Under the pieces are notes generated by a model. That model saw only the letters and a program-made list of their open reading frames with translations, was not told the DNA's origin and did no database searches. A program made the translations under genes and the position numbers. A DNA stretch of 64,000 nucleotides from an uncultured Gammaproteobacteria bacterium. GTDB lineage: Bacteria > Patescibacteriota > Patescibacteriia > UBA11705 > JABHMO01. This document shows positions 2,464-49,216 of this stretch, piece after piece. The first letter of the stretch is position 1, and each line of letters begins with the position of its first letter. The stretch lies in the NCBI GenBank assembly GCA_964590105.1, contig CAZPYM010000002.1, positions 154,697-218,696 of the forward strand, in the 5' to 3' direction.

Positions 2464-2815
2464 ATTAAATACATGATTACTGATTTGTACTGATATGCCG
2501 ATAGAGGGCGTTGAGAGGCGGAAGAAGATAGAATGAAAAATTAGATTCGCTATCTTCCTTAGTCTTCTATATCTTCCCCAGCCCCTTCCCCCTTTCCCGT
2601 ATAGCAAGTAAAATCAACAGATCAAATATTATTATAATTATTGATTAATATTACATTAAATAATTAGCAAAAGTCAAGTGGCCTGTCAAGGGGTTGTGGC
2701 GGCGGATTTTACGAAATATTGACAAGCATATTTGGTTTTTTTGCTCGGCGGGCTGGTGGTGGGATTCATTGCTTACTTTCTCGAGGAGCAATTGGCTCCG
2801 GCGGAAAAATAATAA

Positions 2816-4438: not shown

Positions 4439-4494
4439 GAAAAATATATAGGAGAAAATAATGGAAGCGGCTAATCCGCCAATTCGCTAATTCA

Positions 4495-4899
4495 CTAATC
4501 AACCAATTCTCGCGCCTCGTTTAAAACCGCCTCCACATTCGGCGCGCAGTTTTCCGGCAGAGAATTGATGTCAAACCAATCCCATTCTTTGATGTCGGCG
4601 CCAGGCTGAATTTCATTGATTCGTTCGGCTAAATAATGGATTAAAATCACTTGAGTTTTCGGGTCGTTCGGTTTCTGAACCATCATCGGCTTTAATGGTT
4701 TAATAATTTTTAGATCAATGCCCATTTCTTCCTTTGCCTCGCGTCGGCAGGCGGTTTCAAGCGAATCAAGTTCATTATCAAAATCAAAATTTTCCACCCG
4801 GCCGCCGGGAAATTTCCAAAAATTATCACCCCCATGTTTATTCAGTAGAACTTTGTTGTTTTCAATTATTACCGGACCGGAAGCGATTATAAAGTTCAT
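4495..4899 (-). CDS. NUDIX hydrolase.
   Basis: Nudix box GGRVENFDFDNELDSLETACRREAKEEMGIDL (GX5EX7REUXEEXGU pattern). Confidence 0.8.
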   Translation of the reverse strand: MNFIIASGPVIIENNKVLLNKHGGDNFWKFPGGRVENFDFDNELDSLETACRREAKEEMGIDLKIIKPLKPMMVQKPNDPKTQVILIHYLAERINEIQPGADIKEWDWFDINSLPENCAPNVEAVLNEARELVD

Positions 4900-6818: not shown

Positions 6819-6845
6819 CTTCCGAACGCATTCGGGAGTTTTTTG
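6819..6845 (+). terminator. Intrinsic terminator cttCCGAAcgcaTTCGGgagTTTTTT. Near-identical copy at 13196..13225.
   Basis: 5-6 bp GC stem plus U-run. ~30 nt nearly identical to the second copy. Confidence 0.6.
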
Positions 6846-6869
6846 TTGAATAAAGTATTTCTGCCCGGC

Positions 6870-6898
6870 TTGACAGCGCAGATTTTTTCACTTATACT
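6870..6898 (+). promoter_or_regulatory. Sigma70-type promoter TTGACA-17-TATACT upstream of the radical-SAM gene.
   Basis: TTGACA at 6870-6875, 17-nt spacer, TATACT at 6893-6898. SD GAAGGAGG 6 nt before ATG at 6962. Confidence 0.55.
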
Positions 6899-6961
6899 GT
6901 TTTATTCTGATTGCACTTTGACAAGTCGATTCATTAACCTTTGGCAGAAGGAGGATAGGCA

Positions 6962-8326
6962 ATGCCGAGGAAGCAGCAGTTTGAAGTTGACGGCGTGAGG
7001 CACGCCACTATCAATGGTCATCGCTTTCATTTGCGGTGGACTGATCCGGGGAAAGATAATTTTCTCTGGATTGACGGCAAGCAGCCGCCATTGATACTGG
7101 ATCAGACAGCGGCAGATTTTGTCGCGCATTTGATTGACGCCATGTGGCTATTTCAGACCGGCGCGGGAGACAATTCTGCCCAAGTGATTAGACATGTTGT
7201 AGACAAAATGTATGACTGCTACGGGCGATCATCGATCATTCGAAAAAAGCGGGTCACAAGGGCCAGGATTGAAGCGGATTTCCAGCGGATTTTCGGCATG
7301 CTTATGGCGGTGGCCGACAGCGGTTGTCCGTATGAATCCGGGCTTGATTCCAAGGAGATCAATTATGGCGTCTGGGCGGCGCCGGCGCGCATGGATCTGG
7401 CAGTGACGTATCGATGCAATCTGCAGTGTAGCAAATGCTATCTTGGCGAGCGTAGCTCGCCGGATATGCCATTCGAATCATGGTTGGAAGTCTACAAAAG
7501 GCTTTGGGAAATCGGCATTTCACAGGTGGTGTTCACCGGAGGGGAGCCTTTGCTTCGTCCGGACATTGTGCAGTTGGTGTCCGAGGCAGACGAATTTGTC
7601 ACCGGGCTTATCACCAATGGAACAGAGCTCGCCCGGTTGGCACAGCCGTTGCGCGACGCCAGCCTGGATTATGTCCAGGTGACGATTGAATCTGCTTTCC
7701 CAACGGTTCACGATCTGATGACACAGACGCCCGGTTCATTGATGAAGACAATGGCCGGCATCAGGGCGGCGGTTGAGTGTGGATTACAGGTGGTGACCAA
7801 TACAACTCTGACAAAAGAGAATGCTGATGGTTTTTGCCGGCTTTTGCGCCAGTTAGAAGGACTCGGCGTGAAAAATGTCGCTTGCAACACGCTCATTTGC
7901 AGCGGACGCGGCACATATCATCGCATGCAGAATGGTCTTTCTGATGCAGAATTGCTCGCCGTAATCAAGCCGGCGCTGGCTGTGGCAAGAGACCTTGGTC
8001 AGAATCTGCAGTGGTATTCGCCGACCTGTTATAATCAGGGTGTGAATCCGATTGAGCTGGGCTTTGGCGTGAAGGCGTGTTCAGCCGCAGCTCACAACAT
8101 GATGGTTGGGCCGGATGGCGAAGTGTTTCCGTGCCAGTCATGGCCGAAATCGGTTGGAAACATCTTGCTGAATAGCTGGCCGGCAATCTGGGAACATCCC
8201 ACGTGCGTGGCTTTGCGCAATCACGAAATGGCGCCCGCGGCTTGCCGCGATTGCGAGCATTTGTCCGTCTGTGGCGGAGGATGCCCGCTCGACAAGGACG
8301 CGCGTCTCGGCGAGGTGAAGTCATGA
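6962..8326 (+). CDS. Radical SAM / SPASM-domain protein with ~130 aa N-terminal (RRE-like) extension. Putative peptide/protein-modifying maturase.
   Basis: CNLQCSKC (CX3CX2C, Cys152/156/159). C-terminal Cys cluster C-X2-C-X5-C-X3-C (CRDCEHLSVCGGGC) plus upstream CNTLICSG / CYNQG / CSAAAH, typical of the SPASM twitch. Stop overlaps the next start (ATGA). Confidence 0.85.
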   Translation: MPRKQQFEVDGVRHATINGHRFHLRWTDPGKDNFLWIDGKQPPLILDQTAADFVAHLIDAMWLFQTGAGDNSAQVIRHVVDKMYDCYGRSSIIRKKRVTRARIEADFQRIFGMLMAVADSGCPYESGLDSKEINYGVWAAPARMDLAVTYRCNLQCSKCYLGERSSPDMPFESWLEVYKRLWEIGISQVVFTGGEPLLRPDIVQLVSEADEFVTGLITNGTELARLAQPLRDASLDYVQVTIESAFPTVHDLMTQTPGSLMKTMAGIRAAVECGLQVVTNTTLTKENADGFCRLLRQLEGLGVKNVACNTLICSGRGTYHRMQNGLSDAELLAVIKPALAVARDLGQNLQWYSPTCYNQGVNPIELGFGVKACSAAAHNMMVGPDGEVFPCQSWPKSVGNILLNSWPAIWEHPTCVALRNHEMAPAACRDCEHLSVCGGGCPLDKDARLGEVKS

Positions 8327-9294
8327 ACAAGAGCATACTGGCGCTGCTGGCTTTTTGCCTGGCCCTGCCTGCGACAAAAGCGTTGGCCGGCGATACCGGC
8401 ACATACGAAATTCTGGATTACAGGGTCAATCTGACGCCGCGCGCTGACGGCACGGTGGATATTGACTATTATCAGAAATGGGCAGTGACCGGCGGGCACA
8501 TTCCATGGATTACGGTCGGCCTGCCGAACAGCGATTACGAAATCAAGAAAAGTTCAGGCAATGCCGCCTCCATCAAGCCGGCCAATAGCGGCGGTTGGAG
8601 CGGTGTTCGTCTGGATCTAGACCGGGATTATCAGCCGGACGAGACATTTGAGGTGAACTTTTCCATTGTTCAGACCAAGTTGTTCTGGGCTGATGAAGAA
8701 AAGTATTACCTCGCATACACTCCGGGCTGGTATGATCAGGCTCCGGTTCATAACTTGGACGTAACGGTACGCTTTTTTGCCAAGCTGGAATCGGTCACGG
8801 CCGAGCCGGAACCAAGCAAAAATGGCGATGAAACTTTGAGCTGGCAAACTTCGCTGGGCAAGGGCCAGAAGTTCAGCTTTGAGATTTCTTTTCCAAAGGC
8901 AGTGTTTGAGCAACCGATTTCGGAAGAAAATCTGAAAGATACTGGCGGAGTCGGTTGGTTGATCATCCTCATTATCTTCATTCTGCTAGTTGTCGTTATT
9001 ATTTTCCTCGCCGCCAGCGGAGTTTTTGGCGGGGGCGGATTTGGCGGCGGGGATGATGACGACGGGTACAGCGGTGGTAGCATTTTTTACGGTGGCGGCA
9101 GCGGAGGCGGATCTGGCGGTGGCGGCCGTTCAGCCGGCGGCGGAGGTGGCTTTGGCGGACGAACCAGTTCGTGCGCCTGTGCCTGTGTATCCTGCGCCTG
9201 TGCTTGCGCTTGCGCCGGCGGCGGCGGGGCTGGTTGCGACCGCAAAGCCAAGCATCTGTGTCCTGTTTGCAATCAAACAAGGGCAGAGAGCTAG
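8323..9294 (+). CDS. DUF2207-like exported membrane protein with Gly-rich tail extended by a (Cys-Ala)n repeat and a CxxC end.
   Basis: The start overlaps the rSAM stop (ATGA). Signal peptide MNKSILALLAFCLALPATKALA. ~200 aa ectodomain resembling the DUF2207 N-domain (TYEILDYRVNLTPRADGTVDIDYY...). One TM (WLIILIIFILLVVVIIFLAA). Tail GGGGFGGGDDDDGYSGG...GGGGGFGGRTSSCACACVSCACACACAGGGGAGCDRKAKHLCPVCNQTRAES. Confidence 0.7.
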   Translation: MNKSILALLAFCLALPATKALAGDTGTYEILDYRVNLTPRADGTVDIDYYQKWAVTGGHIPWITVGLPNSDYEIKKSSGNAASIKPANSGGWSGVRLDLDRDYQPDETFEVNFSIVQTKLFWADEEKYYLAYTPGWYDQAPVHNLDVTVRFFAKLESVTAEPEPSKNGDETLSWQTSLGKGQKFSFEISFPKAVFEQPISEENLKDTGGVGWLIILIIFILLVVVIIFLAASGVFGGGGFGGGDDDDGYSGGSIFYGGGSGGGSGGGGRSAGGGGGFGGRTSSCACACVSCACACACAGGGGAGCDRKAKHLCPVCNQTRAES

Positions 9295-9367
9295 CCGGAT
9301 TACGGCTAAATAGAAAACAATTCCCTGGACCTAGTTAAGTTCAGGGAGTTTTATTTGTATGGGACAC

Positions 9368-9396
9368 TTGACAAATTATAAGTTTCTTTATATGAT
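9368..9396 (+). promoter_or_regulatory. Sigma70-type promoter TTGACA-17-TATGAT.
   Basis: Consensus hexamers with a 17-nt spacer, ~50 nt upstream of ATG 9445 (SD AAGGGAGG). Confidence 0.5.
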
Positions 9397-9444
9397 TTTA
9401 TAATTACCCGAACATTGACAACTGACAAATTAAGGGAGGGTTTA

Positions 9445-10647
9445 ATGCAAAAGCTTAGTGTTGTGCTATTGCTGATTGCGGGCGCTGTTTTTACCGGCTG
9501 CAGTGAACAGCTGGGGGCGCTCGGAGGAACGTTTGCGCGTTCTTTGCTTTTCGTGCTTCCGTTTATCGCAGTCATGATTGGCATTATTTTTGCAATGAAC
9601 AAATGGATCGTTGATAGCCGCGGCGCAACAAATGAAAGACTTTGTTCAGCTGTCGGCGTTGTTAGTTTTCCGGTTTTGTTTTTCGTAGCCTTTTACTTGT
9701 ACTGGGGCTGGAGCTGGTGGGTCATCGGCGCCGCTTTTTTGCTCGGCGGGCCAATCGGCTGGTTCAGCTATACGCTCGATGAGCTTTTGGTAGAATTTTG
9801 GGAAAATCGAGTTGTTACCCTGCCGGGACTTGTCGGGTTGATTCTTGGAGGCGCGGTGATTGTCTCGTTTTTTACCGGCATTTGGCTGGAAGGCGATATG
9901 TATGTAACGAACAAGGCCTGTTCAGCTCGGGCAGTGGTTGAAAGATATAGCGAGACCTGCACCAAGGACGATGATGGGGTTCGTAGCTGTTCCGATTCCT
10001 GGGATTACTACTATCATGTTGACCGAATTGCTGATGGTTGGCAATTGCCTTCCCTGGAAAAAGGAAGAGATTACCAGCTCGGTCGCGGTGATTATGGCCG
10101 AGAAGACCGAGTTAGATTAGAATCATATTTTCTGATTGGCGGGCAGTTTTATTCTGAAGAACAAAAGCAATGGACAGAGTTTCGTTGGCTTGTTCTGAAA
10201 AAAAAGATCCCGGTGGAGTTGAGGCAGGTGCAACACATCCGCAGCAACTTTTACGGGAATCCGGCTGAAAACGCAGGCGCTGTTAGCGAGCCGGCGCCAT
10301 TGCCGGAGAGTGTGGCGGCAAGGGTGTTGACCGGTGATGATCTGCCGCCCGGATCAACAACAATGAAAGCCATTTCAATTGTTTGGGATACGGTTAAGCT
10401 ACTTTTTTCAGAAGAAGAATATAGGGGAATATTGTATATCTTCTTATGTGTTTTTGCATTAATTGGAACGCTGGCATTTTTTGTGCCGGTAACAAGGCCT
10501 TCAGTAGCGGCATTTACGAGTTGTTTTTTCATAATCGCTCTAATTGCAGTAATGATTATTGCGGCCAGAACCGGCAGTCTTGGTTCCGGCAGACGCCGGC
10601 GTTCTTCCGGCGGCGGCGGATTTGGTGGAAGAACGTTTACGCGTTAG
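9445..10647 (+). CDS. Polytopic membrane lipoprotein with Gly-rich C-terminal tail (GGGGFGGRT). Possible paralogous partner of the DUF2207-like protein.
   Basis: Start at the internal Met (MQKLSVVLLLIAGAVFTGC lipobox) with SD AAGGGAGGGTTTAATG. Predicted 3-4 N-terminal TMs, a ~200 aa soluble domain and 2 C-terminal TMs. Ends ...RRRRSSGGGGFGGRTFTR, the same motif as the preceding protein. Confidence 0.6.
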   Translation: MQKLSVVLLLIAGAVFTGCSEQLGALGGTFARSLLFVLPFIAVMIGIIFAMNKWIVDSRGATNERLCSAVGVVSFPVLFFVAFYLYWGWSWWVIGAAFLLGGPIGWFSYTLDELLVEFWENRVVTLPGLVGLILGGAVIVSFFTGIWLEGDMYVTNKACSARAVVERYSETCTKDDDGVRSCSDSWDYYYHVDRIADGWQLPSLEKGRDYQLGRGDYGREDRVRLESYFLIGGQFYSEEQKQWTEFRWLVLKKKIPVELRQVQHIRSNFYGNPAENAGAVSEPAPLPESVAARVLTGDDLPPGSTTMKAISIVWDTVKLLFSEEEYRGILYIFLCVFALIGTLAFFVPVTRPSVAAFTSCFFIIALIAVMIIAARTGSLGSGRRRRSSGGGGFGGRTFTR

Positions 10648-10657
10648 GGAGGTGATA

Positions 10658-11230
10658 ATGCGAAAAACATGTTTTCTGTTTGTCTTTTTGGCATTGCTAT
10701 TTAATGCTTGCTCTAAGGATGAGCAGGCTGATCAGCAGATGCCGGAAGCATCAAAGTACGGAGACCAAGCGCGGGTTCTCACGGGAGAGCCGGCGTTTCC
10801 GGCGCTGGAAAAAAGTTGGATTATTGACAAAGCCAATGCGGTTTCATTAGAAGTTGAAAGGACCGCCGATGCCGTTTTGCAGTCATTGCAGGACGACGGA
10901 TTGGCTGAAGTTGTTGTGTTAATTATCACAGGGGTGAAAAAGCCCGGTGACTATGCTACTCAATACGGACGTTTTCTTCAACTGGGCAAAGCAGGGCCGG
11001 CTTCGGACGGAGGAAACAGAGGCATTGTCTGGTTGGTCAGACCGGATGCTGATGAAAAAATGACCATCTCGGTTGGTCGCGGACTGCCCGGTTTTACCTC
11101 GCAGGACTATGGCGAGATTATGGACGCCGTGGGTGATTATTGTCAGTTCAACAATTATGACAAATGCGTGCAGAGACTCGCGGAAAAGACCAGTGAGGTT
11201 TTGCGCCGGCTGCAAAAAGTCAAACCCTAA
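10658..11230 (+). CDS. TPM-domain-like (DUF477/YgcG-type) lipoprotein.
   Basis: Start at the internal Met with SD GGGAGGTGATAATG. Lipobox LFNAC. Segment GIVWLVRPDADEKMTISVGRGLPGFTSQDYGEIMDAV resembles the TPM core. Family call is tentative. Confidence 0.45.
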   Translation: MRKTCFLFVFLALLFNACSKDEQADQQMPEASKYGDQARVLTGEPAFPALEKSWIIDKANAVSLEVERTADAVLQSLQDDGLAEVVVLIITGVKKPGDYATQYGRFLQLGKAGPASDGGNRGIVWLVRPDADEKMTISVGRGLPGFTSQDYGEIMDAVGDYCQFNNYDKCVQRLAEKTSEVLRRLQKVKP

Positions 11231-11252
11231 ATGCGACAAGGAGGCAAACCGC

Positions 11253-11900
11253 ATGAAAAAGGGAACAATCATTCTTCTCGCAGTGCTCGGAGTCTTCATT
11301 CTCGGCGGTGTGTCCATGTGCAGTTCTGTGGTGGGCGTGTGGAACACGCTCAACAGCAACTACCAGGGCGTGCAGGCCGGCAAATCGCACTACGGTGCGG
11401 CGCTCGACATCGTGCCGGAAAAGATCAAGGGAGTGTGGCAGCTCTCTGATCAGTATTTGGATCACGAATCCGACACATTCAAGATGGTGGCGGCGGCTAG
11501 GAGCGGACTGCTCCAATCCATCGATGGTTTCAAAAAGGCTGAGCAGGGCGGCGCTTCTGATGCGGACATGCTGAAGAATGGCCAGGGCGTCATGGACATG
11601 TTCAACAAGTTCAAGGATGCTAGCCTGGCAGTCAATGTGCAGATCGAGGCCTATCCGCAGCTTCGTGGCGCGGAAACAACCAAGACGGCCATGCGGGCAG
11701 TCGAGGAAGGCGTCAATGAAATCAAGACGGCGCTGGACGACTGGATCGCGTCCATCAAGGTGTACAATGAGTATCGCGGCAGCGCCTGGCCATCCATTCT
11801 TGGAGGATTTATGGCCAAGTTCCCGGTCGAGATTCCCTACTACGAAGCGGAAAGGACAAAGCTCAATATCGATGAGCTGAATCCAAAAAGCAACAAGTAG
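11253..11900 (+). CDS. LemA family protein.
   Basis: Start at the internal Met (MKKGTIILLAVLGVFILGG...) with SD AAGGAGG. N-terminal TM, then WNTLNSNYQGVQAGKSHYGAALDIVPEKIKGVWQL... consistent with LemA (PF04011). Family call from memory. Confidence 0.65.
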   Translation: MKKGTIILLAVLGVFILGGVSMCSSVVGVWNTLNSNYQGVQAGKSHYGAALDIVPEKIKGVWQLSDQYLDHESDTFKMVAAARSGLLQSIDGFKKAEQGGASDADMLKNGQGVMDMFNKFKDASLAVNVQIEAYPQLRGAETTKTAMRAVEEGVNEIKTALDDWIASIKVYNEYRGSAWPSILGGFMAKFPVEIPYYEAERTKLNIDELNPKSNK

Positions 11901-11996
11901 CGCCCTCGTGCGCTAAATAAAAATATCTTCCAGAGAACGTTCTGGGAGATTTTTTGTTAGACAAAGAAGCTTAATTTGAACTAAAATCGCGCGCCA

Positions 11997-12025
11997 TTGA
12001 CATTTCTATATAATTTTGCTATAGT
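11997..12025 (+). promoter_or_regulatory. Sigma70-type promoter TTGACA-17-TATAGT.
   Basis: Consensus hexamers. SD GGAGGTGGAGACATG at 12064. Confidence 0.5.
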
Positions 12026-12063
12026 TAATTGTTGTCATTTGACAATTTAACGGAGGTGGAGAC

Positions 12064-12597
12064 ATGGTTACTCTAGCAATCATTTTCGTCGTTGGGCTGT
12101 TTGGATTGGCCGCGAGCCTTTGTTATTTGTTTTTTAGCAACAGAGTACATTCGGGCGTCAGCCTGGCGATAATTTCCTTGCTTGCTTCTCTTTTGATTCT
12201 GTTATTTGCCGGCTTTAATCTGATTAGTCAGAATCTTGATCTTAAGTCGGAGGAGGAAAGTCCGCGCGTCGAGGAAGGTGAGCCAGTTGAGCTGAATCCT
12301 TCGGGTTGCGTGCTTGAATGGAAAGATTTGCGAATCGTAGGAAACTACGGCGCGATCACGGTTGCAAATAAGTCGAATGCCGACGTTGAAGTCTGGGTGT
12401 CTGCGACCGGCATGAGCCTACAGGCAAAGCTGGAACCCAAGCGCGGCATCCGTCTTCGTTCCGGCGTGAGGTTTCCGGAAACAGACATGGCCTGGACAGT
12501 GAAGCTCTCGACCGGCGAGAGCCGAAGCTTCGACTTCTTGAATTGTTTGCCGCTTGCTTGCGATCTTCAACCAGCATATGGGCTGGAACGGGAATAG
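12064..12597 (+). CDS. Hypothetical membrane-anchored protein (2 N-terminal TMs plus ~110 aa domain).
   Basis: ORF with strong SD. High GC. No recognisable family. Confidence 0.5.
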   Translation: MVTLAIIFVVGLFGLAASLCYLFFSNRVHSGVSLAIISLLASLLILLFAGFNLISQNLDLKSEEESPRVEEGEPVELNPSGCVLEWKDLRIVGNYGAITVANKSNADVEVWVSATGMSLQAKLEPKRGIRLRSGVRFPETDMAWTVKLSTGESRSFDFLNCLPLACDLQPAYGLERE

Positions 12598-12606
12598 GAG
12601 GACAAC

Positions 12607-12900
12607 ATGGGCGAAATATTCCTGCTGTGGTTTGGCCGTTTGTGCCTGCTGTTGGTAGGGCTGGCGGTTGTCTGGTGGTTCAGGCAGTCGTGCGGAGACA
12701 TTTGGTCAAGCGTTGAAGAACGGATTCCAGTTTTGGCGCTCGGCCTTTTCGCTCTGGTGATTTGCGCGCTGACCTTTGCACCGCCTCGAATCAACTATTT
12801 GAAGTATCCGCCGGTAATCAGAGCCATGAACGCGCCGGCGCCTGATCAGATCTCACGATGTCTTGAAGGGAAAATCAACATTCCGATTTGTCGGAAATAG
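12607..12900 (+). CDS. Small hypothetical membrane protein (2 TM).
   Basis: SD ATAGGAGGACAACATG. Hydrophobic segments. High GC. Confidence 0.4.
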   Translation: MGEIFLLWFGRLCLLLVGLAVVWWFRQSCGDIWSSVEERIPVLALGLFALVICALTFAPPRINYLKYPPVIRAMNAPAPDQISRCLEGKINIPICRK

Positions 12901-12910
12901 AAGGGGGCCC

Positions 12911-13180
12911 ATGGTTTCCATGTATATTACTCTTGCGTGGTTAATGATCATTGTGACTTTGTTTTTGGCTTTGGGCGCGTGGAGCTATTGGAGTGAACCG
13001 CCCGAACCGGCAAAAGCAATTTTTTGCGGATTGCTGGCGACAGCACTCCTTCTCCTGGCTGGAGTTTTCTTTGTGCGCGCGCAGAATGAGCAGAAAAAGA
13101 TAAAGGCGGCTATGCTAGAGGTGGAAGACACCGTCATCCATGAAGACCTGCTGGACGTCAAAAGCAGGCAACTTCCATAA
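12911..13180 (+). CDS. Small hypothetical membrane protein (2 TM).
   Basis: Internal Met start preceded by AAGGGGGCCCATG. Two hydrophobic helices. Confidence 0.35.
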   Translation: MVSMYITLAWLMIIVTLFLALGAWSYWSEPPEPAKAIFCGLLATALLLLAGVFFVRAQNEQKKIKAAMLEVEDTVIHEDLLDVKSRQLP

Positions 13181-13195
13181 TTCAATGAATAAAAA

Positions 13196-13225
13196 CTTCC
13201 CGAACGCATTCGGGAGTTTTTTTTG
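13196..13225 (+). terminator. Intrinsic terminator cttCCCGAAcgcaTTCGGGagTTTTTTTT. Right-hand copy of the island boundary repeat.
   Basis: Stem-loop plus U-run. Near-identical to 6819..6845. Confidence 0.6.
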
Positions 13226-13260
13226 TTACGAATTACGAATCTGCTACGAATCTACGTATC
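13225..13260. repeat. TACGAAT heptamer array (gttacgaattacgaatctgctacgaatctacgtatc). Second copy lies upstream of nusA at 16842..16888.
   Basis: ~35-nt near-identical block at two loci 3.6 kb apart. Confidence 0.6.
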
Positions 13261-14196
13261 ACTATTAATAATAATACTTGCGGTTGAGTTCCATTTTTGA
13301 AGGATTTCCAGCCGCGTATCTTTGTCGTGGAATTTCAACACTTTGTCGTTGATAACAACGTTGGTGTTGTTTTGCTTTGCCAGTTCGCGCAAGTGACGAG
13401 GAAGAACTTTTAGCTGAAATTTTTTAGCCAGAGATTCAGCCCAAAAAAATAATTTGCAATTTAGAGCGCCTTCGGAAATTTTTTGAGTCAGTGGCCGCGC
13501 CTTGATCTGCCAGCGGGCATTTGTTTGCACGGGAAAATAATTTGGCAGATATTTTTTGGTCCAAATATTGGCCTGAAAAAAGTTGTTGATTAATTCCGGT
13601 CGGCCGCAAACCGGCACGAATTGGTTTAGCCAGTAAATAAAGTGTACGTCATTTTCATAAGCCAGCGACTGGAGATTTAAATTGTCTTCGGTAATGTAAA
13701 AGCTCAGACAGATTTTGTCTTTTTGTGATTTGACGGTCGGTCTTTGGCGGAGCAATTTCATGGCCAAAACGCAAAAAAGTCTGGCGGTCCAGATTTTATT
13801 TCTGGCGCAAATAATTGTCAGGTCGATGTCGCTGCCTTCGCGCGCGTTTTGATAAGCCAGATTATTGCAAATAAAAATTGCCCGAACATAGGGCAGTCGA
13901 TTGAGTAGCTGGATATATTTTTTTGCTTTTTTTATTTTCGCCTGGGCCAGTAAATATTTTTTCTTTCTTTCAAAAACAATATTGTCCTTGCGTTTTAAAA
14001 AATAAAATCCTTCGTTTGAGCCGAGGATTTTTTCATTAAGCAGATTATCCAGAGCGAAATTAACTTCATTTAGGGAATAATTTGTTTCCGGCTGCCAGAG
14101 ATTTTTCCATATTTCCCAGCCGGTCAGAGGAAAATCAAAAATATTAAAATACGAAATGGTTCTTAAGATTGTTTTTTCTAGGCTTCTCTCTTGCAT
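13252..14196 (-). CDS. Nucleotidyltransferase-fold hypothetical protein.
   Basis: 314 aa. GSDIDLTI motif typical of the pol-beta-like NTase fold. Confidence 0.45.
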   Translation of the reverse strand: MQERSLEKTILRTISYFNIFDFPLTGWEIWKNLWQPETNYSLNEVNFALDNLLNEKILGSNEGFYFLKRKDNIVFERKKKYLLAQAKIKKAKKYIQLLNRLPYVRAIFICNNLAYQNAREGSDIDLTIICARNKIWTARLFCVLAMKLLRQRPTVKSQKDKICLSFYITEDNLNLQSLAYENDVHFIYWLNQFVPVCGRPELINNFFQANIWTKKYLPNYFPVQTNARWQIKARPLTQKISEGALNCKLFFWAESLAKKFQLKVLPRHLRELAKQNNTNVVINDKVLKFHDKDTRLEILQKWNSTASIIINSDT

Positions 14197-14495
14197 ACGC
14201 TGGCGGCTTCTTCCATGGGCGCGCGTTCGGGCTGTTTCATCGCATGTCTGATCTGGCTGGCCTCGACATTGTCTTCCACGATGACTTTTTCTCCGGTGAT
14301 TTTTACAATTTGCTCGGGCGCGATCAGTAGTTCCGAGCTGGTGGCAAAGAATTTGCTTTTGACTACAATATATTTGGAAATGCTGTGTCCGTCAATTTCA
14401 ATTGACAGATCGCAAACCCGGCCCAATAAAATTCCACTTTGAGTTTCCACGGGAAGCTTTTTTAGCTTACTGTAGTGAAGTTGCATAGTTGCCAA
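14178..14495 (-). CDS. PRC-barrel domain protein.
   Basis: 105 aa. LLGRVCDLSIEIDGHSISKYIVVK pattern resembles the PRC barrel (YlmC/YmxH-like). Confidence 0.45.
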   Translation of the reverse strand: MATMQLHYSKLKKLPVETQSGILLGRVCDLSIEIDGHSISKYIVVKSKFFATSSELLIAPEQIVKITGEKVIVEDNVEASQIRHAMKQPERAPMEEAASVCKREA

Positions 14496-14538
14496 ATTAC
14501 CTGATTACTTAATTACCAAAGTACTCATTAATTAAGTT

Positions 14539-16838: not shown

Positions 16839-16841
16839 ATT

Positions 16842-16888
16842 GTTACGAATTACTAATCAGCTACGAATCTACGAATGGCTATGAATGT
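16842..16888. repeat. TACGAAT heptamer array immediately upstream of the nusA start codon.
   Basis: gttacgaattactaatcagctacgaatctacgaatggctatgaatg. Ends 4 nt from the nusA ATG (minus strand). Confidence 0.6.
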
Positions 16889-17148
16889 TGATAGCGATTT
16901 TGTAAAATAGTAGGTGAATTTATAATTGGTGGTTTTAAAAAAAACACTAGTTTAATTATCATAAACTAGCTTACTATGAAAGTATAGCAGGCTAATTAAA
17001 TTTTGTCCATAATGAAAGGTCTTGTCAAGCGGATTTAATTGTGTTAAAGTAGTTCTAGTTTAATAAATTAAGGGTATTCTGCGTTACGACCATTAATTTT
17101 AGCGAACTTCTATTTTGCTAGAATTACAGAATATCAACTCATTTTCAT

Positions 17149-17673: not shown

Positions 17674-17678
17674 TAAAT

Positions 17679-17744
17679 AGTAAGTAGTGAGTAGTGAGTA
17701 GTAAGTAGTGAGTTAACTCACCACTCACCACTCACCATTCACCA
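17679..17744 (+). promoter_or_regulatory. Long imperfect hairpin built from tandem heptamers (AGTGAGT x5 / CTCACCA x4) between rpsF and ssb.
   Basis: ~22 of 26 positions pair. No U-run follows. Confidence 0.5.
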
Positions 17745-18233: not shown

Positions 18234-18315
18234 TTAAATTCAGGACAGGGAATTTATACCGGATAATAATACATTGATCCGGTCTGGCGGGAAGATTTTC
18301 TTTCCCCCAGTTCAA

Positions 18316-18564
18316 ATGAAATCCCGGTTCTCTGATAATATGAAACCCACTACTCAAATCAAGGAAAAGAAATGTTATTTTTGCGACAACGGAATCAAGG
18401 AAATAGATTACAAAGATGGTCAGACACTCCGGAAATTTATTTCTTCTTACGCAAAGATAATGCCACGCCGAAGAACAAGACTTTGTTCCAAGCACCAACG
18501 AAAAATCGCCATGGCCATCAAACGCGCGCGCATTATGGCGATACTTCCTTTTGTAAACCGTTAA
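18316..18564 (+). CDS. rpsR: 30S ribosomal protein S18.
   Basis: KKCYFCDNGIKEIDYKDGQTLRKFIS...RRRTRLCSKHQRKIAMAIKRARIMAILPF. The start codon is uncertain: candidates at 18274, 18316 and 18340. Confidence 0.82.
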   Translation: MKSRFSDNMKPTTQIKEKKCYFCDNGIKEIDYKDGQTLRKFISSYAKIMPRRRTRLCSKHQRKIAMAIKRARIMAILPFVNR

Positions 18565-18650
18565 AATGCTTGATTTACTGATTTATTACGTGATATTACT
18601 GATTAGATATCGCGTAGTATCAGTTAAAATCATGTAGATCAAGTTTTTTT

Positions 18651-19214: not shown

Positions 19215-19311
19215 AAGGTAAAAGTTGAAATCCGAAAGTTGAAGGTTGAAAGATTGAAGTTGAGGGTCATGACTGTAGTAATTAAAAAAAGAAGATAAAA
19301 AAACATACAAA

Positions 19312-19342
19312 AACAACGCTCTCGCTCGGAGTGTTGTTTTTT
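19312..19342. terminator. Intrinsic terminator of the AACAAC...CGGAGTGTTGTT family (copy 1).
   Basis: aacaacgctctcgctcggagtgttgtttttt. Confidence 0.6.
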
Positions 19343-19410: not shown

Positions 19411-19650
19411 ATGGCTGAAATTACGCGCTTCGGAATAGACATAGCGGTCAATACTCATTTGGATGGCACGCGCATTCATTACCTGTTTGCGCAGGTTGTG
19501 CCGCAATTGAAGACTGATGATTCCGGAAACGTTGTGCCGGAACAGATTGAAAATTTCAGAAAATCTCTCCGCGCCGCCTCGCGTGAGGCGCCGGATGAAG
19601 TCACGGCAATGAAGTGCCGAAAGTTGTTGGCGTTCTTACGCCAATTCTAA
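19411..19650 (+). CDS. Small hypothetical protein (79 aa). High-GC cassette gene.
   Basis: Internal Met start with strong SD. Flanked by two family terminators. Noticeably GC-richer than neighbours. Confidence 0.45.
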   Translation: MAEITRFGIDIAVNTHLDGTRIHYLFAQVVPQLKTDDSGNVVPEQIENFRKSLRAASREAPDEVTAMKCRKLLAFLRQF

Positions 19651-19658
19651 AACCAATC

Positions 19659-19692
19659 AAAACAACACCCGCGCACGGAGTGTTGTTTTTTT
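19659..19692. terminator. Intrinsic terminator of the AACAAC...CGGAGTGTTGTT family (copy 2).
   Basis: aacaacacccgcgcacggagtgttgttttttt. Confidence 0.6.
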
Positions 19693-21419: not shown

Positions 21420-21437
21420 AAATTACAAATTACAGAT
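21420..21437. repeat. TACAAAT/TACAGAT heptamer pair 5 nt upstream of the kinase start. 15 nt are identical to the rbfA leader.
   Basis: aaattacaaattacagat. Exact 15-mer aaattacaaattaca is also at 49199-49213. Confidence 0.55.
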
Positions 21438-21443
21438 CCCCTC

Positions 21444-21477
21444 AAAACAACACCCGCGCTCGGAGTGTTGTTTTTTG
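21444..21477. terminator. Intrinsic terminator of the AACAAC...CGGAGTGTTGTT family (copy 3).
   Basis: aacaacacccgcgctcggagtgttgtttttt. Confidence 0.6.
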
Positions 21478-21497: not shown

Positions 21498-22190
21498 CTA
21501 AGCCGTTACCTTTTTCATATAGGCCAACCAAAAATTTCTTTTGTAGCTTTGTCCTTTGAATCTGGTATAGCTGGTTTTTTTCAGTAGTTTGATAATTTTA
21601 AAATATTTTGAATAAAGATTAATAAAATCCTGCCCAATAAAAACTCTTTCAATTAAATGCATATCTTCATTAACGTAAGTATCAGGCTCCGGTCCGGGGT
21701 TAATTTTGAGTAATGCTTTGGCGTTTTTGTCGCCTTCTTTGCACAAAGCTTTCACAAAAAAATAGCCGTTTTCTTTTAATACTCTATGCGTCTCAGATAA
21801 ATATATATACCTCTCTTTTTCATTTAATGAATTGGAAGAGGTGACGTCGAGCGCCAGATCAAATGTTGCGTCTTCAAACGGATATTCTGATCCGATATTA
21901 TGAAGTTTATAATCGACTTTAATTTCCAGCTCTTTGGCTCGGGATATTGCAAGGCCAATTGCCGTCTGGGATATTTCCAGGCCGGCAACTTTGTTGCCCA
22001 GTTCTGCTAAATAATTGGCATTTCGGCCGGTGCCGCACCCCAGATCCAGTATTGCCAGGTTTTCCGGTTTAATGTTTTCCTGCTTTTTTAAGAATTTCAA
22101 AAAGCGCAGTACATCCTTTTGCGGATTGCCTTCTTTTGTGACCAATTGTGGTCTTTGATATTCGTTTTCCCAGGCAGCGGTTTGAGGCAT
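21498..22190 (-). CDS. Class I SAM-dependent methyltransferase.
   Basis: ILDLGCGTGRNANYL motif I. 230 aa. Confidence 0.8.
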   Translation of the reverse strand: MPQTAAWENEYQRPQLVTKEGNPQKDVLRFLKFLKKQENIKPENLAILDLGCGTGRNANYLAELGNKVAGLEISQTAIGLAISRAKELEIKVDYKLHNIGSEYPFEDATFDLALDVTSSNSLNEKERYIYLSETHRVLKENGYFFVKALCKEGDKNAKALLKINPGPEPDTYVNEDMHLIERVFIGQDFINLYSKYFKIIKLLKKTSYTRFKGQSYKRNFWLAYMKKVTA

Positions 22191-22203
22191 AAGTTATACG
22201 CTG
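22126..22203. repeat. Left copy of a 78-bp direct repeat (methyltransferase start codon plus first 25 codons).
   Basis: 75 of 78 nt identical to 24305..24382. Confidence 0.85.
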
Positions 22204-22872: not shown

Positions 22873-22985
22873 GGTTTTTACTGATTATTATTATTATTGT
22901 TTTGTTACGACGCACAACTTGGTATTAGGCGAAAGTGAGCGGAACAGAGTGGAGCGAAAGCGTAGCGTCCCCTTGAGGAGCTCTT

Positions 22986-24304: not shown

Positions 24305-24382
24305 TAATTTTTTTCTTTTGCGGATTGCCTTCTTTTGTGACCAATTGGGGTCTTTGATATTCGTTTTCCCAGGCGGCGGTTT
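24305..24382. repeat. Right copy of the 78-bp direct repeat (truncated 5' end of a methyltransferase gene, minus strand).
   Basis: Encodes MPQTAAWENEYQRPQLVTKEGNPQK then runs into unrelated sequence. 3 mismatches versus 22126..22203. Confidence 0.85.
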
Positions 24383-24440
24383 GGGGCATATAAGAACATT
24401 GCAATAATTTTTTATTTTTACGGCGGCGTTTCTCTTTTCG

Positions 24441-30985: not shown

Positions 30986-31124
30986 TACAGATGTACAGAT
31001 TTTGGGGTCAGATATACAGATTTAGATCGTACAGATTGTACAGATTGAAGGTAGGCAAGGAACAAAGAAAAACTTCCAGAGCTAACCTTTATCCAACAGA
31101 TCTGTATAATCTGTATATCTGTGC
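30986..31124. repeat. Array of TACAGAT heptamers: 5 direct copies, the 10-bp palindrome ACAGATCTGT and 2 inverted copies.
   Basis: The heptamer count above, all within ~140 bp, 95-230 nt upstream of the ftsK start. Confidence 0.7.
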
Positions 31125-31136
31125 CATTTTAAAAAA

Positions 31137-31171
31137 CAAAGGGGGATGGCTCACACGGAGCCACCCCCTTT
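31137..31171. other. Strong hairpin aaagggggatggctc-acac-ggagccaccccctttg.
   Basis: 14-bp stem with one mismatch. No clear U-run. Confidence 0.4.
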
Positions 31172-31206
31172 GAAATTTAGGAGAGTTTTAGAAAAACCCC
31201 CCAAAT

Positions 31207-31406
31207 GAGTAGACAATTTTTCCGCAAGAAAGATTGAAAGATCAATTTATGTGTGCGGAAAAAGAGGAGAGAGATTCCCTCCAGGGGAATTTGTCTACTC
31301 GTTTCGAGGGTAAAAATAATTTGCAGAAAAGTGATGAGGAGGGCGTACGAGCTCATATTTGTTTATGAATTGTAGCCCAGCTTCTCTCCTCATCAGTTTT
31401 CTGCAA
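31207..31406. other. Structured AT-rich block with two long inverted-repeat pairs. MITE-like element or structured ncRNA candidate.
   Basis: Outer IR gagtagacaa(31207)/ttgtctactc(31291). Second IR ttgcagaaaagtgatgaggag(31321)/ctcctcatcagttttctgcaa(31386). Smaller hairpins inside. Confidence 0.3.
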
Positions 31407-31862
31407 ATCAGATTATTTATCAGCAAGAGGATGTAGAAGATAAATTACCGGATCGGACGGGCATAAATAAATATATAATTTAATAATTCCCTTGATCCGG
31501 CGTGTTGATGATAGAGTTGGGCCGACGATTTGGCGCGAGCCAAGCTGTTAGCCGCAATTCTTTTTCTCTCTCCTCCTACATCATTTTGCTGATAAAATGT
31601 TTATGCTTATTTTAATGAACTTAGTATTATAGCACATATTGAAAATCTTGTCAATAGGCGATGAATCGTTAGAGTGTTTATAGCTAAAATTAAACTAAAT
31701 AAAGTGTTATTGATTTATAGCAATATAAAGATAATTTGACAATTCATTTTTTTTGTATTATTCTATGTTGTGATATAGGTAATAAATTATCAAGCAGGAT
31801 TATTCCGGTTAAAATATTAGTAATTGTTTTGACCAATATAATCTTGTTTAGCTTCATTCTAT

Positions 31863-39924: not shown

Positions 39925-41178
39925 TTATTCTTTTGTTTCTTCTGCTTCTTTATCCTTTTTGTCTTCTTGCGCCTCTTTGTCATCCCGAGCGATCCCGCCT
40001 TTGGCGGGAGAGTCGAGGGATTCTTCAGCATCTCTATCTCCTTTAACTTCTTTATCTTCTTTTTCCGGCTTTTTGCCATCCATTGATTTGATGCTCAGTC
40101 CGAGCCGGTGTTCAGTAGGTTCAATGGAAACAATTCTGAATTTCATGGTGGTTCCTGGTACAGCAAAGCCTTCGGTAGAGTCAATTTTTTTGTCGGATAG
40201 TTCTGAAATATGCGCCAGTCCGTGAATATCTTCATCAAGTTGTACAAATAGTCCGAAGGGAGTTGCTTTCAGTATGATTCCCTCCACAACGTCGTCAACT
40301 TTGTATTTGTCGTGGATGTTTTCCCATGGATCTTTTTTCAGCTTTTTGCTTGACAAGAATATTTTTGAACCTTCGATTTTAATGATTTCTGCTTTTATCG
40401 CATCACCGACTTTAAATAGATCAGCCGGATTTTCAATTCTCTGCCAGGCTAGCTCTGAGATATGAATCAATCCTTCCAGCTTGTCGCCGAATTCCACGAA
40501 CACGCCAAAGTCAGTGACCGCAGTAATTGTTCCTTCCACTATTTCGCCTACGGAAAATTTGCCAAGCACGTCTTTTTGTGTTTCTTCCCAGGCCGCTTTT
40601 TCAGAAACAATCAGTTTTTCGTTTTCCGCATTGGCGTCTAGAACCTTGACAGGAAAACTTTGGCCGATATAGCTTTTCAATCTTTCCAAGATTTTATTCT
40701 TGTCGCCACCTTGAACGCGCGGGTAGAATTCCGGACTTAGCTGGGACACCGGCAAAAATCCGGGGACACTGTTGATCGTTACCAGGAGGCCGCCCTTATT
40801 GGCGTCAATGATTTTGGCCTGCACTGTTTCATTGCTGTCTTTTGATTTTTGTAAAGCTGACCAAGTGCGCTGATGCCCGGCGTAGCGGAAAGAGAGTTCC
40901 ATCTGGCCTTGTTCGTTTTCCAGTTCAATTACAGTGGCTTCTGTTTCGTCTCCGGATTTCAAACTGGCGAATTCATCGGATTCATTATAAAGTTCTTTGC
41001 CTCGGATAATGCCGGTAATAATTCCATTAAAATCAATTAGGACTTCTTTTTTTGAAGCAGATATAACTACGCCCTTGATAATATCGCCTTCTTTGGGCAG
41101 GGTTTTTATCGCCGCATCTTGCTCCAGTAGAGAATTCATGGGAGAAGCTGGATCTGGTTTTACAAATTTTTTAGCCAT
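39925..41178 (-). CDS. rpsA: 30S ribosomal protein S1 (four S1 domains) with charged C-terminal tail.
   Basis: Repeated S1 OB-fold motifs (GxV...G.FV.L..g..Gl.H.SE). KE/D-rich tail. Confidence 0.82.
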   Translation of the reverse strand: MAKKFVKPDPASPMNSLLEQDAAIKTLPKEGDIIKGVVISASKKEVLIDFNGIITGIIRGKELYNESDEFASLKSGDETEATVIELENEQGQMELSFRYAGHQRTWSALQKSKDSNETVQAKIIDANKGGLLVTINSVPGFLPVSQLSPEFYPRVQGGDKNKILERLKSYIGQSFPVKVLDANAENEKLIVSEKAAWEETQKDVLGKFSVGEIVEGTITAVTDFGVFVEFGDKLEGLIHISELAWQRIENPADLFKVGDAIKAEIIKIEGSKIFLSSKKLKKDPWENIHDKYKVDDVVEGIILKATPFGLFVQLDEDIHGLAHISELSDKKIDSTEGFAVPGTTMKFRIVSIEPTEHRLGLSIKSMDGKKPEKEDKEVKGDRDAEESLDSPAKGGIARDDKEAQEDKKDKEAEETKE

Positions 41179-41501: not shown

Positions 41502-42161
41502 ATGAACATTAGTTGGTTGGGGCATTCTTGTTTTAAAATGGAGGAAAAAATCGGTAGTCAATTGGTTACGATAATTACTGACCCTTATGATGACAGTGTC
41601 GGTTTTCGCCTGCCGAAAATGAAGGCGGACTTGGTTTCAGTCAGCCACGATCATTTTGATCATGCTAATTCGGCGGCAGTGTCGGGAATTGACAGCGCTT
41701 TGCCGATTGTAATTGACCGGCCGGGTGAATATGAAGTCAAGGGCGTGTTTGTCCAGGGCATTGGCGCTTATCATGACAAAAAACAGGGCGCAGAACGCGG
41801 TAAGTCAGTGATGTTTATGTTTGACATCGGCGGAATAAACGTCCTGCACTTGGGGGATCTTGGCACTACCCTGTCCGATCAGCAATTGGAAAAAATAGAC
41901 GATATTGATATTTTGCTGATCCCGGTCGGAGGTAATTATACGATCAATGCCAAAGAAGCGGCTGAAGTCGTGCGTCAGCTCGAGCCGCGGATTGTTATTC
42001 CAATGCACTACAAAATTCCAGGGCTTAAGATTGACATTGAGGGCGTGGAAAATTTCAAAAAAGAAATGGGTGGCAAAGCGGAAACATTAAATAAATTAAA
42101 AGTTAATAAAAAAGAATTGCCTCAAGATGAATGCCGGCTAGTACTTTTGGAAAAAACATAA
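41502..42161 (+). CDS. MBL-fold metal-dependent hydrolase (UPF0173-like).
   Basis: HDHFDH motif and conserved Asp/His downstream. Confidence 0.75.
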   Translation: MNISWLGHSCFKMEEKIGSQLVTIITDPYDDSVGFRLPKMKADLVSVSHDHFDHANSAAVSGIDSALPIVIDRPGEYEVKGVFVQGIGAYHDKKQGAERGKSVMFMFDIGGINVLHLGDLGTTLSDQQLEKIDDIDILLIPVGGNYTINAKEAAEVVRQLEPRIVIPMHYKIPGLKIDIEGVENFKKEMGGKAETLNKLKVNKKELPQDECRLVLLEKT

Positions 42162-42179
42162 ACATAAAAATAAAAATAT

Positions 42180-49195: not shown

Positions 49196-49216
49196 AACAA
49201 ATTACAAATTACAAAT
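49196..49216. repeat. TACAAAT heptamer tandem (acaaattacaaattacaaatg) 10 nt upstream of the rbfA start.
   Basis: Exact 15-mer shared with 21420-21434. Confidence 0.55.

Follow-up and report, generated by a model that had tools for sequence, protein, structure and literature searches.

A stretch of 64,000 nucleotides (nt) from a patescibacterial genome (contig CAZPYM010000002.1, positions 154,697 to 218,696; termed the window) carries short tandem heptamer arrays a few nucleotides upstream of nusA, rbfA, groES and further genes that lack a Shine-Dalgarno (SD) sequence. These arrays are real and non-random. They are members of a repeat family found throughout the clade, with short AUYN(N)GUA units and a period of 7-8 nt, sometimes 10-11 nt. 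The family occurs outside coding DNA only, is enriched only in spacers holding a gene start and is often paired with an inverted UACNRAU array; its repeats read in the sense direction, and 3-20 nt separate them from the AUG of the SD-less gene that follows. We propose, with a probability of roughly 0.45, that the arrays are slippage-born simple-sequence repeats (SSRs) that may have been retained as RNA-level leader modules of SD-less genes.

The host is a member of the Patescibacteria resembling Falkowbacteria and Kuenenbacteria: every NusA relative stems from Patescibacteria, the best match sharing 80% identity. Searching for exact matches to the nusA, VanW, Mur ligase and groES proteins led to 13 contigs, all 100% identical to the window, while a NusA scan of metagenomes yielded 11 loci, all of them distant. 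Comparisons were made with six syntenic relatives for which gene calls were available (L346, L347, L349, L350, L351 and L352), i.e., together with the window, seven genomes and ~185 kb, a small sample of 190 genes from one syntenic region plus the window. Pfam confirms the gene names given here for array-bearing genes of the window.

The nusA leader

On the sense (minus) strand, positions 16888 to 16836 read GCC ATTCGTAG ATTCGTAG CTG ATTAGTA ATTCGTA ACAAT ATG, and the ATG at 16838 opens a NusA protein of 468 aa. An earlier note on this DNA had described three copies of ATTCGTA ending 5 nt from the ATG; the distance is correct, and the array reads ATTCGTAG ATTCGTAG ctg ATTAGTA ATTCGTA. The following features were assigned to the leader and to a second, related array:

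16844..16876, minus strand: nusA leader array of four units, with motif matches at 16844, 16851, 16862 and 16870; it stops 5 nt from the ATG at 16838
16845..16930, minus strand: imperfect hairpin 2 of the nusA 5' leader, 86 nt; the array forms its 3' arm and the last pair lies 6 nt before the AUG
16937..16969, minus strand: leader hairpin 1, CTAGTTTATGATAATTAAACTAG, followed by a U8 run and attenuator-like; it places the array within the transcript
16981..17009, minus strand: predicted nusA promoter TGGACA-17 nt-TGcTATACT (TG-extended TATACT), 10/12 matches, TG present, position kept in relatives
13227..13251, minus strand: near copy of the nusA array (ATTCGTAG cag ATTCGTA ATTCGTA), directly after the stop codon of the last nusA-operon gene and followed by a bidirectional terminator

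In the direction of transcription the order is thus promoter, conserved hairpin with U8, array hairpin, 5 nt and AUG. At least nine related genomes, with NusA identities down to 57%, have the predicted promoter, hairpin and U-run in nearly the same form, the hairpin sequence being identical in L001, L002, L003, L346, L347 and L349 and present as variants in L350-L352. Since promoter and attenuator-like hairpin are conserved upstream of it, the array, located ~95-135 nt downstream of the predicted promoter in a leader of ~135 nt, should lie inside the 5' untranslated region (UTR), and a role as promoter element, which the earlier note had considered, is not supported.

Hairpin 2 folds with -15.9 kcal/mol (z -4.75), and none of 200 shuffled sequences was equally stable. 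Second hairpins built from other sequences are found at the matching nusA site of L346 (z -3.6), L349 (z -2.0) and L350 (z -3.2), the arms of the latter consisting of three TACAGAT copies paired with three copies of ATCTGTA/ATCAGTA. Intrinsic termination was rejected as an explanation for hairpin 2 and likewise for the hairpin preceding ssb, because a U-run is missing on either strand.

The near copy of the array, correctly noted before at 13225-13260, is part of a repeat pair of 54 nt with 83% identity (13223-13276 vs. 16840-16893). Its position right behind a stop codon and before a terminator identifies it as a 3'-UTR copy and not as an element preceding a start. It is missing at the orthologous sites of L346, L347 and L349.

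The upstream part of the leader (16937-17009, minus strand) deserves mention in its own right. A near-invariant hairpin, (A)GCTAGTTTATGATWWTTAAACTAGC, with its U-run stands behind a -35/extended -10 promoter, also in L001, L002, L003, L346, L347 and L349-L352, and looks like an undescribed attenuator; for the nusA leader nothing meaningful was returned by Rfam at E <= 10. Autoregulation of NusA via a weak terminator is known in Bacillus.

Arrays at other genes of the window

Further arrays, including some built from other units, are located as follows:

21420..21437, minus strand: array ATCTGTA ATTTGTA ATTT of a shikimate-kinase-like gene, between a terminator hairpin and the ATG at 21415, stopping 4 nt from this ATG
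49196..49216, minus strand: rbfA array ATTTGTA ATTTGTA ATTTGTT (2.9 copies), 8 nt upstream of the ATG and downstream of a TGCTATAAT box
2478..2494, minus strand: groES boxes ATCAGTA caa ATCAGTA, ending 14 nt before the ATG at 2463
22879..22885, minus strand: single ATCAGTA 6 nt before the ATG of an S51 peptidase gene; no array, compatible with chance
30986..31047, minus strand: ATCTGTA copies upstream of ftsK, the distal ones forming the 3' arm of a long hairpin
31100..31122, minus strand: TACAGAT copies ahead of ftsK that make up the 5' arm of the inverted array
17678..17744, plus strand: inverted array of five TAGTGAG and four ACTCACC copies (another unit) in the rpsF-ssb spacer, ending 6 nt before the ssb ATG; -28.1 kcal/mol, z -6.1
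18576..18650, plus strand: hairpin of the rpsR-efp spacer (TACTGAT... / ATCATGTAGATCAAGT), with U7 and then the efp ATG behind it; belongs to the family and is missing from the earlier note; -30.9 kcal/mol, z -7.3
14495..14525, minus strand: 8-mer relatives of the motif, ATTAAGTA ATCAGGTA ATTTGGCA, before a PRC-barrel gene; no significant fold
4468..4508, minus strand: octamer array GATTAGTG AATTAGCG AATTGGCG GATTAGCC, 29 nt before the hyp329 ATG
42154..42178, plus strand: AAACAT/AAAAAT hexamer array abutting the ATG at 42180 of a plus-strand gene

All sites named in the earlier note are present, among them the two ATCAGTA copies of groES, with gaps to the ATG of 4 instead of 5 nt for the kinase gene and of 8 instead of 9 nt for rbfA. 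The exact 15-mer said to be common to the kinase and rbfA leaders is indeed there (TGTAATTTGTAATTT), as are the TACAGAT/ATCTGTA arrays upstream of ftsK, though they are situated 94-230 nt from the ATG. The S51 peptidase site exists, 6 nt before the ATG, as a single copy at chance level. Restriction to minus-strand genes proved to be an accident of the window: arrays follow gene orientation, as exemplified by the plus-strand genes ssb, efp and hyp124, and the same holds for the relatives. The kinase-like gene starts at ATG 21415 and not at an upstream TTG, and the true start of groES is its second ATG (2463). The leader of rbfA is unstructured (fold z +1.66). Upstream of ftsK the hairpin reaches -40.2 kcal/mol (z -4.4), and the hairpin of the efp spacer has an orthologue in L349 (z -5.6).

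Could the arrays act at the level of DNA, as repeated -35/-10-like boxes giving rise to short-leader transcripts or as operator arrays for a dimeric repressor? The 7+3+7 geometry of the groES boxes, found in the window as well as in L349, resembles the heptad direct repeat recognized by CtsR on heat-shock genes, and inverted arrays look like operators. Furthermore, a conserved TGTACA-17-TGATAAAAT promoter lies upstream of ftsK, and its -35-like TGTACA is overlapped by the proximal ATCTGTA copies, so that the promoter option noted earlier is partly borne out at this gene only. On the other hand, the arrays of nusA, rbfA and groES reside 60-130 nt downstream of good conserved promoters, which in the case of rbfA and groES have extended -10 boxes. 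In TAATYN boxes the critical final T is frequently missing, and their distance from the ATG is not constant; together with the good promoters upstream, this led us to reject the arrays as -10 boxes of leaderless transcripts. Operators should be conserved between relatives, which is not the case for groES in L347 vs. L349, and their orientation relative to the gene should be irrelevant. A function at the DNA level thus appears very unlikely.

Two observations concern the neighborhood of these arrays. The groES leader (2500-2605, minus strand) forms a long G-rich/C-rich hairpin, flanked by a promoter-like TTGCTATAC on one side and by the ATCAGTA boxes on the other. The leader as a whole reaches -38.5 kcal/mol (z -2.4), and no CIRCE element is visible in it. 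Between ssb and efp, rpsR (ribosomal protein S18, Pfam E = 4.8e-23) is located at 18274-18564 on the plus strand; it is missing from the public gene calls of the contig.

Enrichment and position in the window

The earlier note had made its case dependent on motif frequency and position. The total frequency of ATYNGTA, a motif chosen after the data had been seen, is near chance in the window (62 matches vs. 48±6.8 in dinucleotide shuffles). Its distribution is not: 33 of the 62 matches are intergenic, about three times the expected 11.4±3.2 (maximum 21 in 200 shuffles), although intergenic DNA makes up 14.8% of the window, and same-strand neighbors at most 12 nt apart number 11 vs. 0.19±0.42 in shuffles. 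A motif-free count of arrays with periods of 6-9 nt in intergenic DNA gave 11 vs. 1.0±0.9. Unit families other than ATYNGTA are present as well. Positional preference is weakly significant, with seven of 15 arrays close to a start inside their own short spacers vs. 4.2±1.3 upon random placement (P = 0.045).

Orientation, turnover and retention among relatives

In the seven genomes, all 18 ATYNGTA clusters are intergenic. Clusters located up to 20 nt upstream of a start are oriented in sense in ten cases and in antisense in none (seven vs. zero for the relatives alone), and orientation tracks the gene strand on both strands of the chromosome. Loci fetched after this test had been set down contributed four sense vs. 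zero antisense clusters and 12 vs. one matches. Arrays of any unit are abundant in tandem spacers (25 vs. 1.55±1.25 expected) and divergent spacers (16 vs. 1.41±1.16; 41 vs. about 3 when pooled) and stay at shuffle level in convergent ones (two vs. 0.54), which corresponds to densities of 0.53/kb in convergent spacers and about 2/kb elsewhere. In long tandem spacers arrays gather at both ends, 5' arms close to the stop and 3' arms close to the start. Spacers of the relatives show heptamer periodicity (z 5.8 at lag 7, z 3.7 at lag 14).

Members of the ATYNGTA family occur before rpsR in L347, before efp, Wzy, groES and nusA in L349, before nusA and groES in L350 and before ssb and NUDIX in L352. 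The family has been kept at nusA and groES (window, L349 and L350 in both cases) and at efp (window and L349) in genomes whose NusA proteins are only 72-75% identical, and it is positions 3-4 of the unit that vary. In the groES leader, ATCAGTA-3 nt-ATCAGTA is common to window and L349, as is ATCATGTAGATCAAGT-U run-ATG at efp. Between genera, units and copy numbers differ, and orthologous spacers often retain an array-armed hairpin with a changed unit, e.g., the rpsF-ssb spacer with TAGTGAG/ACTCACC in the window (z -6.1), AAATYCT in L347 (z -3.8) and ATTTTAC in L349 (z -3.1), while L346 has an 18-nt spacer with nothing of the kind. L346, the closest relative (80% NusA identity), does not contain any ATYNGTA array. 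L349 features a second leader repeat family, (A/T)ATCCGCG(T)T with a period of ~11, before an HTH_25 gene (1564), rpsR (8036) and a PRC-like gene (12508).

This combination of turnover and retention bears on a main rival explanation, neutral microsatellites, in which heptanucleotide slippage products pile up in unconstrained sequence, SD-less genes leave the region before the AUG free, and arrays end up there by default without any function. Heptamers are the commonest class of long SSRs in prokaryotes according to the part of Mrazek (2007) relayed in PMC4679880, units turn over at orthologous sites up to complete absence in L346, many unit families exist, and the within-spacer positional test is weak. 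In viral sequences, exact 20-mers of ATTTGTA, of ATTCGTA and of two permuted controls were each found at 41 to over 120 loci of phage and giant-virus contigs. As the permuted controls are equally or more frequent as arrays, the units themselves are not special, and ATTTGTA/ATTCGTA was rejected as a special unit. Neutrality does not predict that ten sense and no antisense clusters stand beside starts, tracking the strand of the gene and not that of the chromosome, nor that convergent spacers are at shuffle level, nor that nusA, groES and efp have all kept the family, only positions 3-4 having changed. Orientation rule, lack of enrichment in convergent spacers and retention at these three genes are hard to reconcile with pure neutrality, which we therefore consider unlikely, and favor the leader-module reading.

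Phage DNA of 55-67% GC contains ATTCGTA arrays repeatedly within a contig, and both kinds of palindrome are represented. Despite the GC-rich background, phage contigs have up to ten ATTCGTA/TACGAAT arrays in 10 kb, most of them inverted pairs, the array-rich contigs being L255, L223, L246 and L260 (GC 0.55-0.60), L240 and L249 (GC 0.64) as well as L230 and L254 (GC 0.41). In phage contig L243, ATTCCTA, ATTCGTA and ATTCCCA units succeed one another inside one array.

Start signals and leader structure

A survey of all gene starts of the window bore out the earlier statement that core genes lack SD sequences: SD is missing before core and housekeeping genes, which share the start context ..AAT ATG. 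Strong GGAGG sites at normal spacing, seen before about 15 genes of the window, mark a number of small hypothetical genes as well as those of a GC-rich island. Array-bearing genes of window and relatives are devoid of GGAG, GAGG and AGGA at -20 to -4. The distribution of start signals suggests that two initiation modes may exist within one cell. Two gene classes by start signal are also visible in the relatives. The island (approximately 6845-13199; 6.4 kb, 50% GC) encodes radical-SAM/SPASM, LemA, TPM and hypothetical proteins, all with GGAGG sites, and is bracketed by exact 23-nt direct repeats (CCGAACGCATTCGGGAGTTTTTT, terminator) at 6822-6844 and 13200-13222. It is absent from the syntenic relatives L347, L349, L350 and L351 and has therefore probably been inserted.

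SD-less leaders (n = 108) fold better than shuffled sequences, with a mean z of -1.46 and 36% below -2, whereas this is not seen for SD-bearing leaders (n = 31), whose mean z is -0.26 with 6% below -2. Pairing in stable SD-less leaders stops 5-13 nt before the ATG in 67% of the cases vs. 37% of shuffles, and AAT occupies positions -3 to -1 in 33 of 117 SD-less leaders. This pattern partly reflects terminators and an A-rich linker. About half of the arrays are hairpin arms and not free single strands, the z values of array-armed hairpins amounting to -4.75 (nusA), -6.1 (ssb), -7.3 (efp) and -4.4 (ftsK).

These data also speak to the earlier suggestion of a translation-initiation enhancer or a binding site for a regulator or rRNA. 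An RNA-level leader element is indirectly supported by ten sense vs. zero antisense clusters, by occurrence in non-coding DNA only, by the lack of enrichment in convergent spacers and by recurrence in relatives, while an enhancing effect on translation would be hypothetical. The option of a regulator or of rRNA binding is weakened, because orthologous leaders keep array or hairpin and swap the unit, which argues against a sequence-specific regulator or rRNA pairing, and because several unit families coexist. The arrays probably do not act via fixed-sequence rRNA pairing or a sequence-specific repressor.

A periodic platform for a trans-acting single-strand RNA binder that reads GUA (or UAA/UAG) every 7-8 nt and thereby controls initiation would fit the conservation of the AU..GUA positions with variable positions 3-4, the tolerance for spacers of 0-5 nt between units and the placement of two to four sense units over the ribosome landing zone. 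Candidates would be an oligomeric triplet reader like TRAP or HutP, a cold-shock or S1/KH-domain protein or ribosomal protein S1; a four-domain S1 protein is encoded in the window, and the same idea has been put forward for the TAACTGA repeats discussed below (PMC4679880). Many start-proximal arrays have unrelated units, however (ACTCACC, CTAGTCC, ATAATTC, ATCCGCG), half of the arrays are locked in stems, GUA does not show a sharp positional peak upstream of starts, and a TRAP/HutP-type protein is not found among the gene calls of the window. We regard such a binder as quite unlikely.

Even less is to be expected from two further ideas, which we take as highly improbable: that the arrays serve as alternative ribosome-binding sites by pairing with a 16S 3' tail peculiar to the lineage, or that they form a three-frame stop barrier which ends stray translation from upstream just before the true AUG. 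Both are in line with SD-less core genes, and a published survey reported the anti-SD motif for only 48% of Parcubacteria (PMC9297842). With regard to pairing, the unit sequence varies so that one rRNA partner cannot fit all arrays, and GGAGG before about 15 genes implies a normal anti-SD. Against the canonical GAUCAC of the E. coli-type tail, GUAAUC fits only with an A-C mismatch, and among 117 SD-less leaders GUA did not exhibit the sharp peak of a positioned SD substitute. An rRNA gene is present neither in the window nor in the loci fetched from relatives, the window is also devoid of tRNA and tmRNA genes, and an Rfam scan of the window gave no match at gathering thresholds. With regard to the barrier, sense units carry UAA/UAG by construction and a period of 7 or 8 covers all frames, a property shared by TAACTGA (PMC4679880). 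Among unbiased arrays stop-containing units were counted in 15 of 21 in sense vs. nine of 21 in antisense, an asymmetry that is not significant (nine vs. three exclusive cases), and arrays in 5' UTRs have no upstream open reading frame to terminate.

Proposed role of the arrays

From anatomy, enrichment, orientation and turnover of the arrays we infer an origin by slippage and a role at the RNA level. Slipped-strand mispairing would make and remodel the repeats, with occasional copying between loci, and they would persist where they supply a start-proximal leader module in the RNA of SD-less genes. Such a module would be either a local hairpin or a structure-free AU-rich tract; 5-13 nt after its end, an A-rich linker (typically ..AAU) and the AUG would follow. 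Start-site accessibility, stability of the mRNA 5' end or intercistronic processing would be its likely targets.

A number of points weigh against this proposal. The motif was chosen after the data had been seen, and when arrays are compared with random placement in their own spacers, their closeness to starts hardly reaches significance. Viral contigs abound in AT-rich heptamer arrays, whatever the unit. In L006, a distant locus from the candidate phyla radiation (CPR), an array beside an ATG has the opposite orientation, and one array copy of the window is found in a 3' UTR. Several arrays, such as those of rbfA and the kinase gene, are without hairpin partner and others are strong stems, so that a single mechanism for all would be hypothetical. 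The ftsK-proximal copies lie on promoter DNA, and the efp hairpin with its U7 run may simply be a terminator. Finally, copy-number polymorphism between close strains would be the signature of slippage, and the strains at hand are nearly indistinguishable: the 13 contigs from other assemblies are 100% identical to the window, and L347 and L348 differ by one single-nucleotide polymorphism.

A bolder version, distinctly unlikely in our estimate, is that core-gene start codons in this SD-poor, Parcubacteria-related clade could be marked by a local mRNA hairpin instead of an SD:anti-SD duplex. Inverted heptamer arrays would be a cheap material for building and rebuilding this hairpin, which, ending 5-13 nt upstream of A-rich linker and AUG, might dock where the SD helix normally sits (near conserved h26) or serve as a standby or insulator module. 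Heptamer arrays would then be the evolutionary raw material of a structure-based ribosome-binding signal.

Either way, the arrays touch upon the question of how start codons are chosen in bacteria without SD pairing. SD-less nusA, groES, ssb, rpsR, efp and rbfA are preceded by a reproducible layout, consisting of sense arrays or array-armed hairpins, A-rich linker and AUG, which is not seen at SD-bearing genes of these genomes. If the arrays matter for initiation or mRNA stability, they provide concrete mutable elements and would give TAACTGA repeats and heptanucleotide SSRs a functional context. In the neutral case they still constitute a record of fast, slippage-driven leader remodeling in reduced genomes and caution annotators against reading them as regulatory motifs.

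Further repeats and structures in the window

The clpP-ftsK spacer contains a stretch of ~480 nt (~31130-31650, minus strand) between a perfect TTGACA-17-TATAAT promoter and a strong terminator, with a 23-bp hairpin at 31319-31408 and blocks conserved in L346 and L347. It harbors neither tRNA nor tmRNA, Rfam offered nothing meaningful at E <= 1, and the stretch could be a novel structured RNA or a small-ORF locus. Inside the Mur-ligase gene (50945-50977, plus strand) the exact octamer ATCAACCA is repeated 4.1 times within coding sequence, a potential frameshift hot spot. A terminator hairpin of 35-49 nt (AAAACAACACYCSNGCGCGGGTGTTGTTTT) is present in three copies (19294-19342, 19643-19691 and 21428-21476), two of which flank the kinase-MFS gene pair. 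Direct repeats of 76 nt with 96% identity (22116-22191 vs. 24315-24390) beside two S51 peptidase paralogues are probably the remnant of a segmental duplication. An inverted similarity of 108 nt (80%) connects 39945-40052 with 60757-60864, and the S1 protein and FtsH have in common a lysine/glutamate-rich C-terminal tail encoded by short repeats.

Comparison with known repeat systems

Cyanobacterial short tandemly repeated repetitive (STRR) sequences are intergenic tandem heptamers that sometimes form long arrays. The related AATT-core units ATTCGTA, ATTCCTA and ATTCCCA interconvert within arrays of phage contig L243; the host differs and STRR arrays are much longer. Repetitive extragenic palindromic (REP) sequences and bacterial interspersed mosaic elements (BIMEs) of proteobacteria are genome-specific, short, imperfect intergenic palindromes, located mainly at the 3' ends of genes, that can act as terminators or mRNA stabilizers. 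Some of the 8-mer units found here end with GTAG, like REP heads. Unlike REP, the arrays are not enriched in convergent spacers (0.53/kb vs. about 2/kb) and their arms are internally periodic. A REP-associated (RAYT) or IS200-type (Y1) transposase is not among the Pfam calls of the window.

The protein TRAP reads (G/U)AG with 2-3-nt spacers, while HutP reads UAG with 4-nt spacers, i.e., with a period of 7. A GUA/UAG triplet repeated with a period of 7-8 in a leader, over the initiation region, is reminiscent of their operators, from which the arrays differ in that units are not limited to one triplet and many are base-paired. An SD-like element would be invariant in sequence and sharply spaced from the AUG, while array units vary and GTA does not peak sharply. 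Location at -35/-10, typical of sigma-70 elements, does not apply at nusA, rbfA and groES, where promoters were predicted from sequence, the ftsK copies on a -35-like box being an exception.

Among long SSRs with units of 5-11 nt, heptanucleotides dominate (Mrazek, 2007, as relayed in PMC4679880; see also PMC4692102). The arrays agree with long SSRs in that short-period arrays are over-long, units that are not multiples of three are excluded from genes, polymerase slippage is the proposed origin and phylogenetic distribution is sporadic; excess over composition was found as well (11 vs. 1.0±0.9; 41 vs. about 3 when pooled). Links to starts, gene orientation and hairpin arms, which are not stated for long SSRs, are apparent for the arrays. 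Searchable literature did not contain a description of the long SSR class or of start-proximal heptamer arrays in CPR bacteria, a paper with these repeat strings, or one on SD use in Patescibacteria.

The closest precedent, by analogy, is provided by the TAACTGA repeats of Beggiatoaceae. These heptamer direct repeats occur in marine Beggiatoaceae, some cyanobacteria and Bacteroidetes (MacGregor, 2015; PMC4679880) in sets of two to six tandem copies, almost all of them intergenic and in forward orientation a few nucleotides from starts, mostly before genes without recognizable ribosome-binding site (RBS), including ribosomal and other essential genes. Only one of 170 sets in Beggiatoa is inverted, RNA structure is not predicted for the repeats, stop codons are present in the forward reading only, and translational control has been proposed (PMC4679880). 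In the window TAACTGA itself is restricted to seven single copies, none in tandem. The arrays described here differ in that they belong to Patescibacteria, that their units are degenerate (ATTCGTA, ATTTGTA, ATCAGTA and ATCTGTA, all ATYNGTA), of low copy number and coexist with several other unit families, and that at nusA, ssb, efp and ftsK as well as in relatives they form the arms of significant hairpins. They resemble TAACTGA repeats in the tandem arrangement of a 7-nt unit (four copies at nusA, 2.9 at rbfA, 2.6 at the kinase gene and two at groES), in the single orientation close to starts (ten sense vs. zero antisense, L006 being the one opposite case), in the lack of a canonical RBS before the genes downstream and in the stop codons carried by sense units of the window family.

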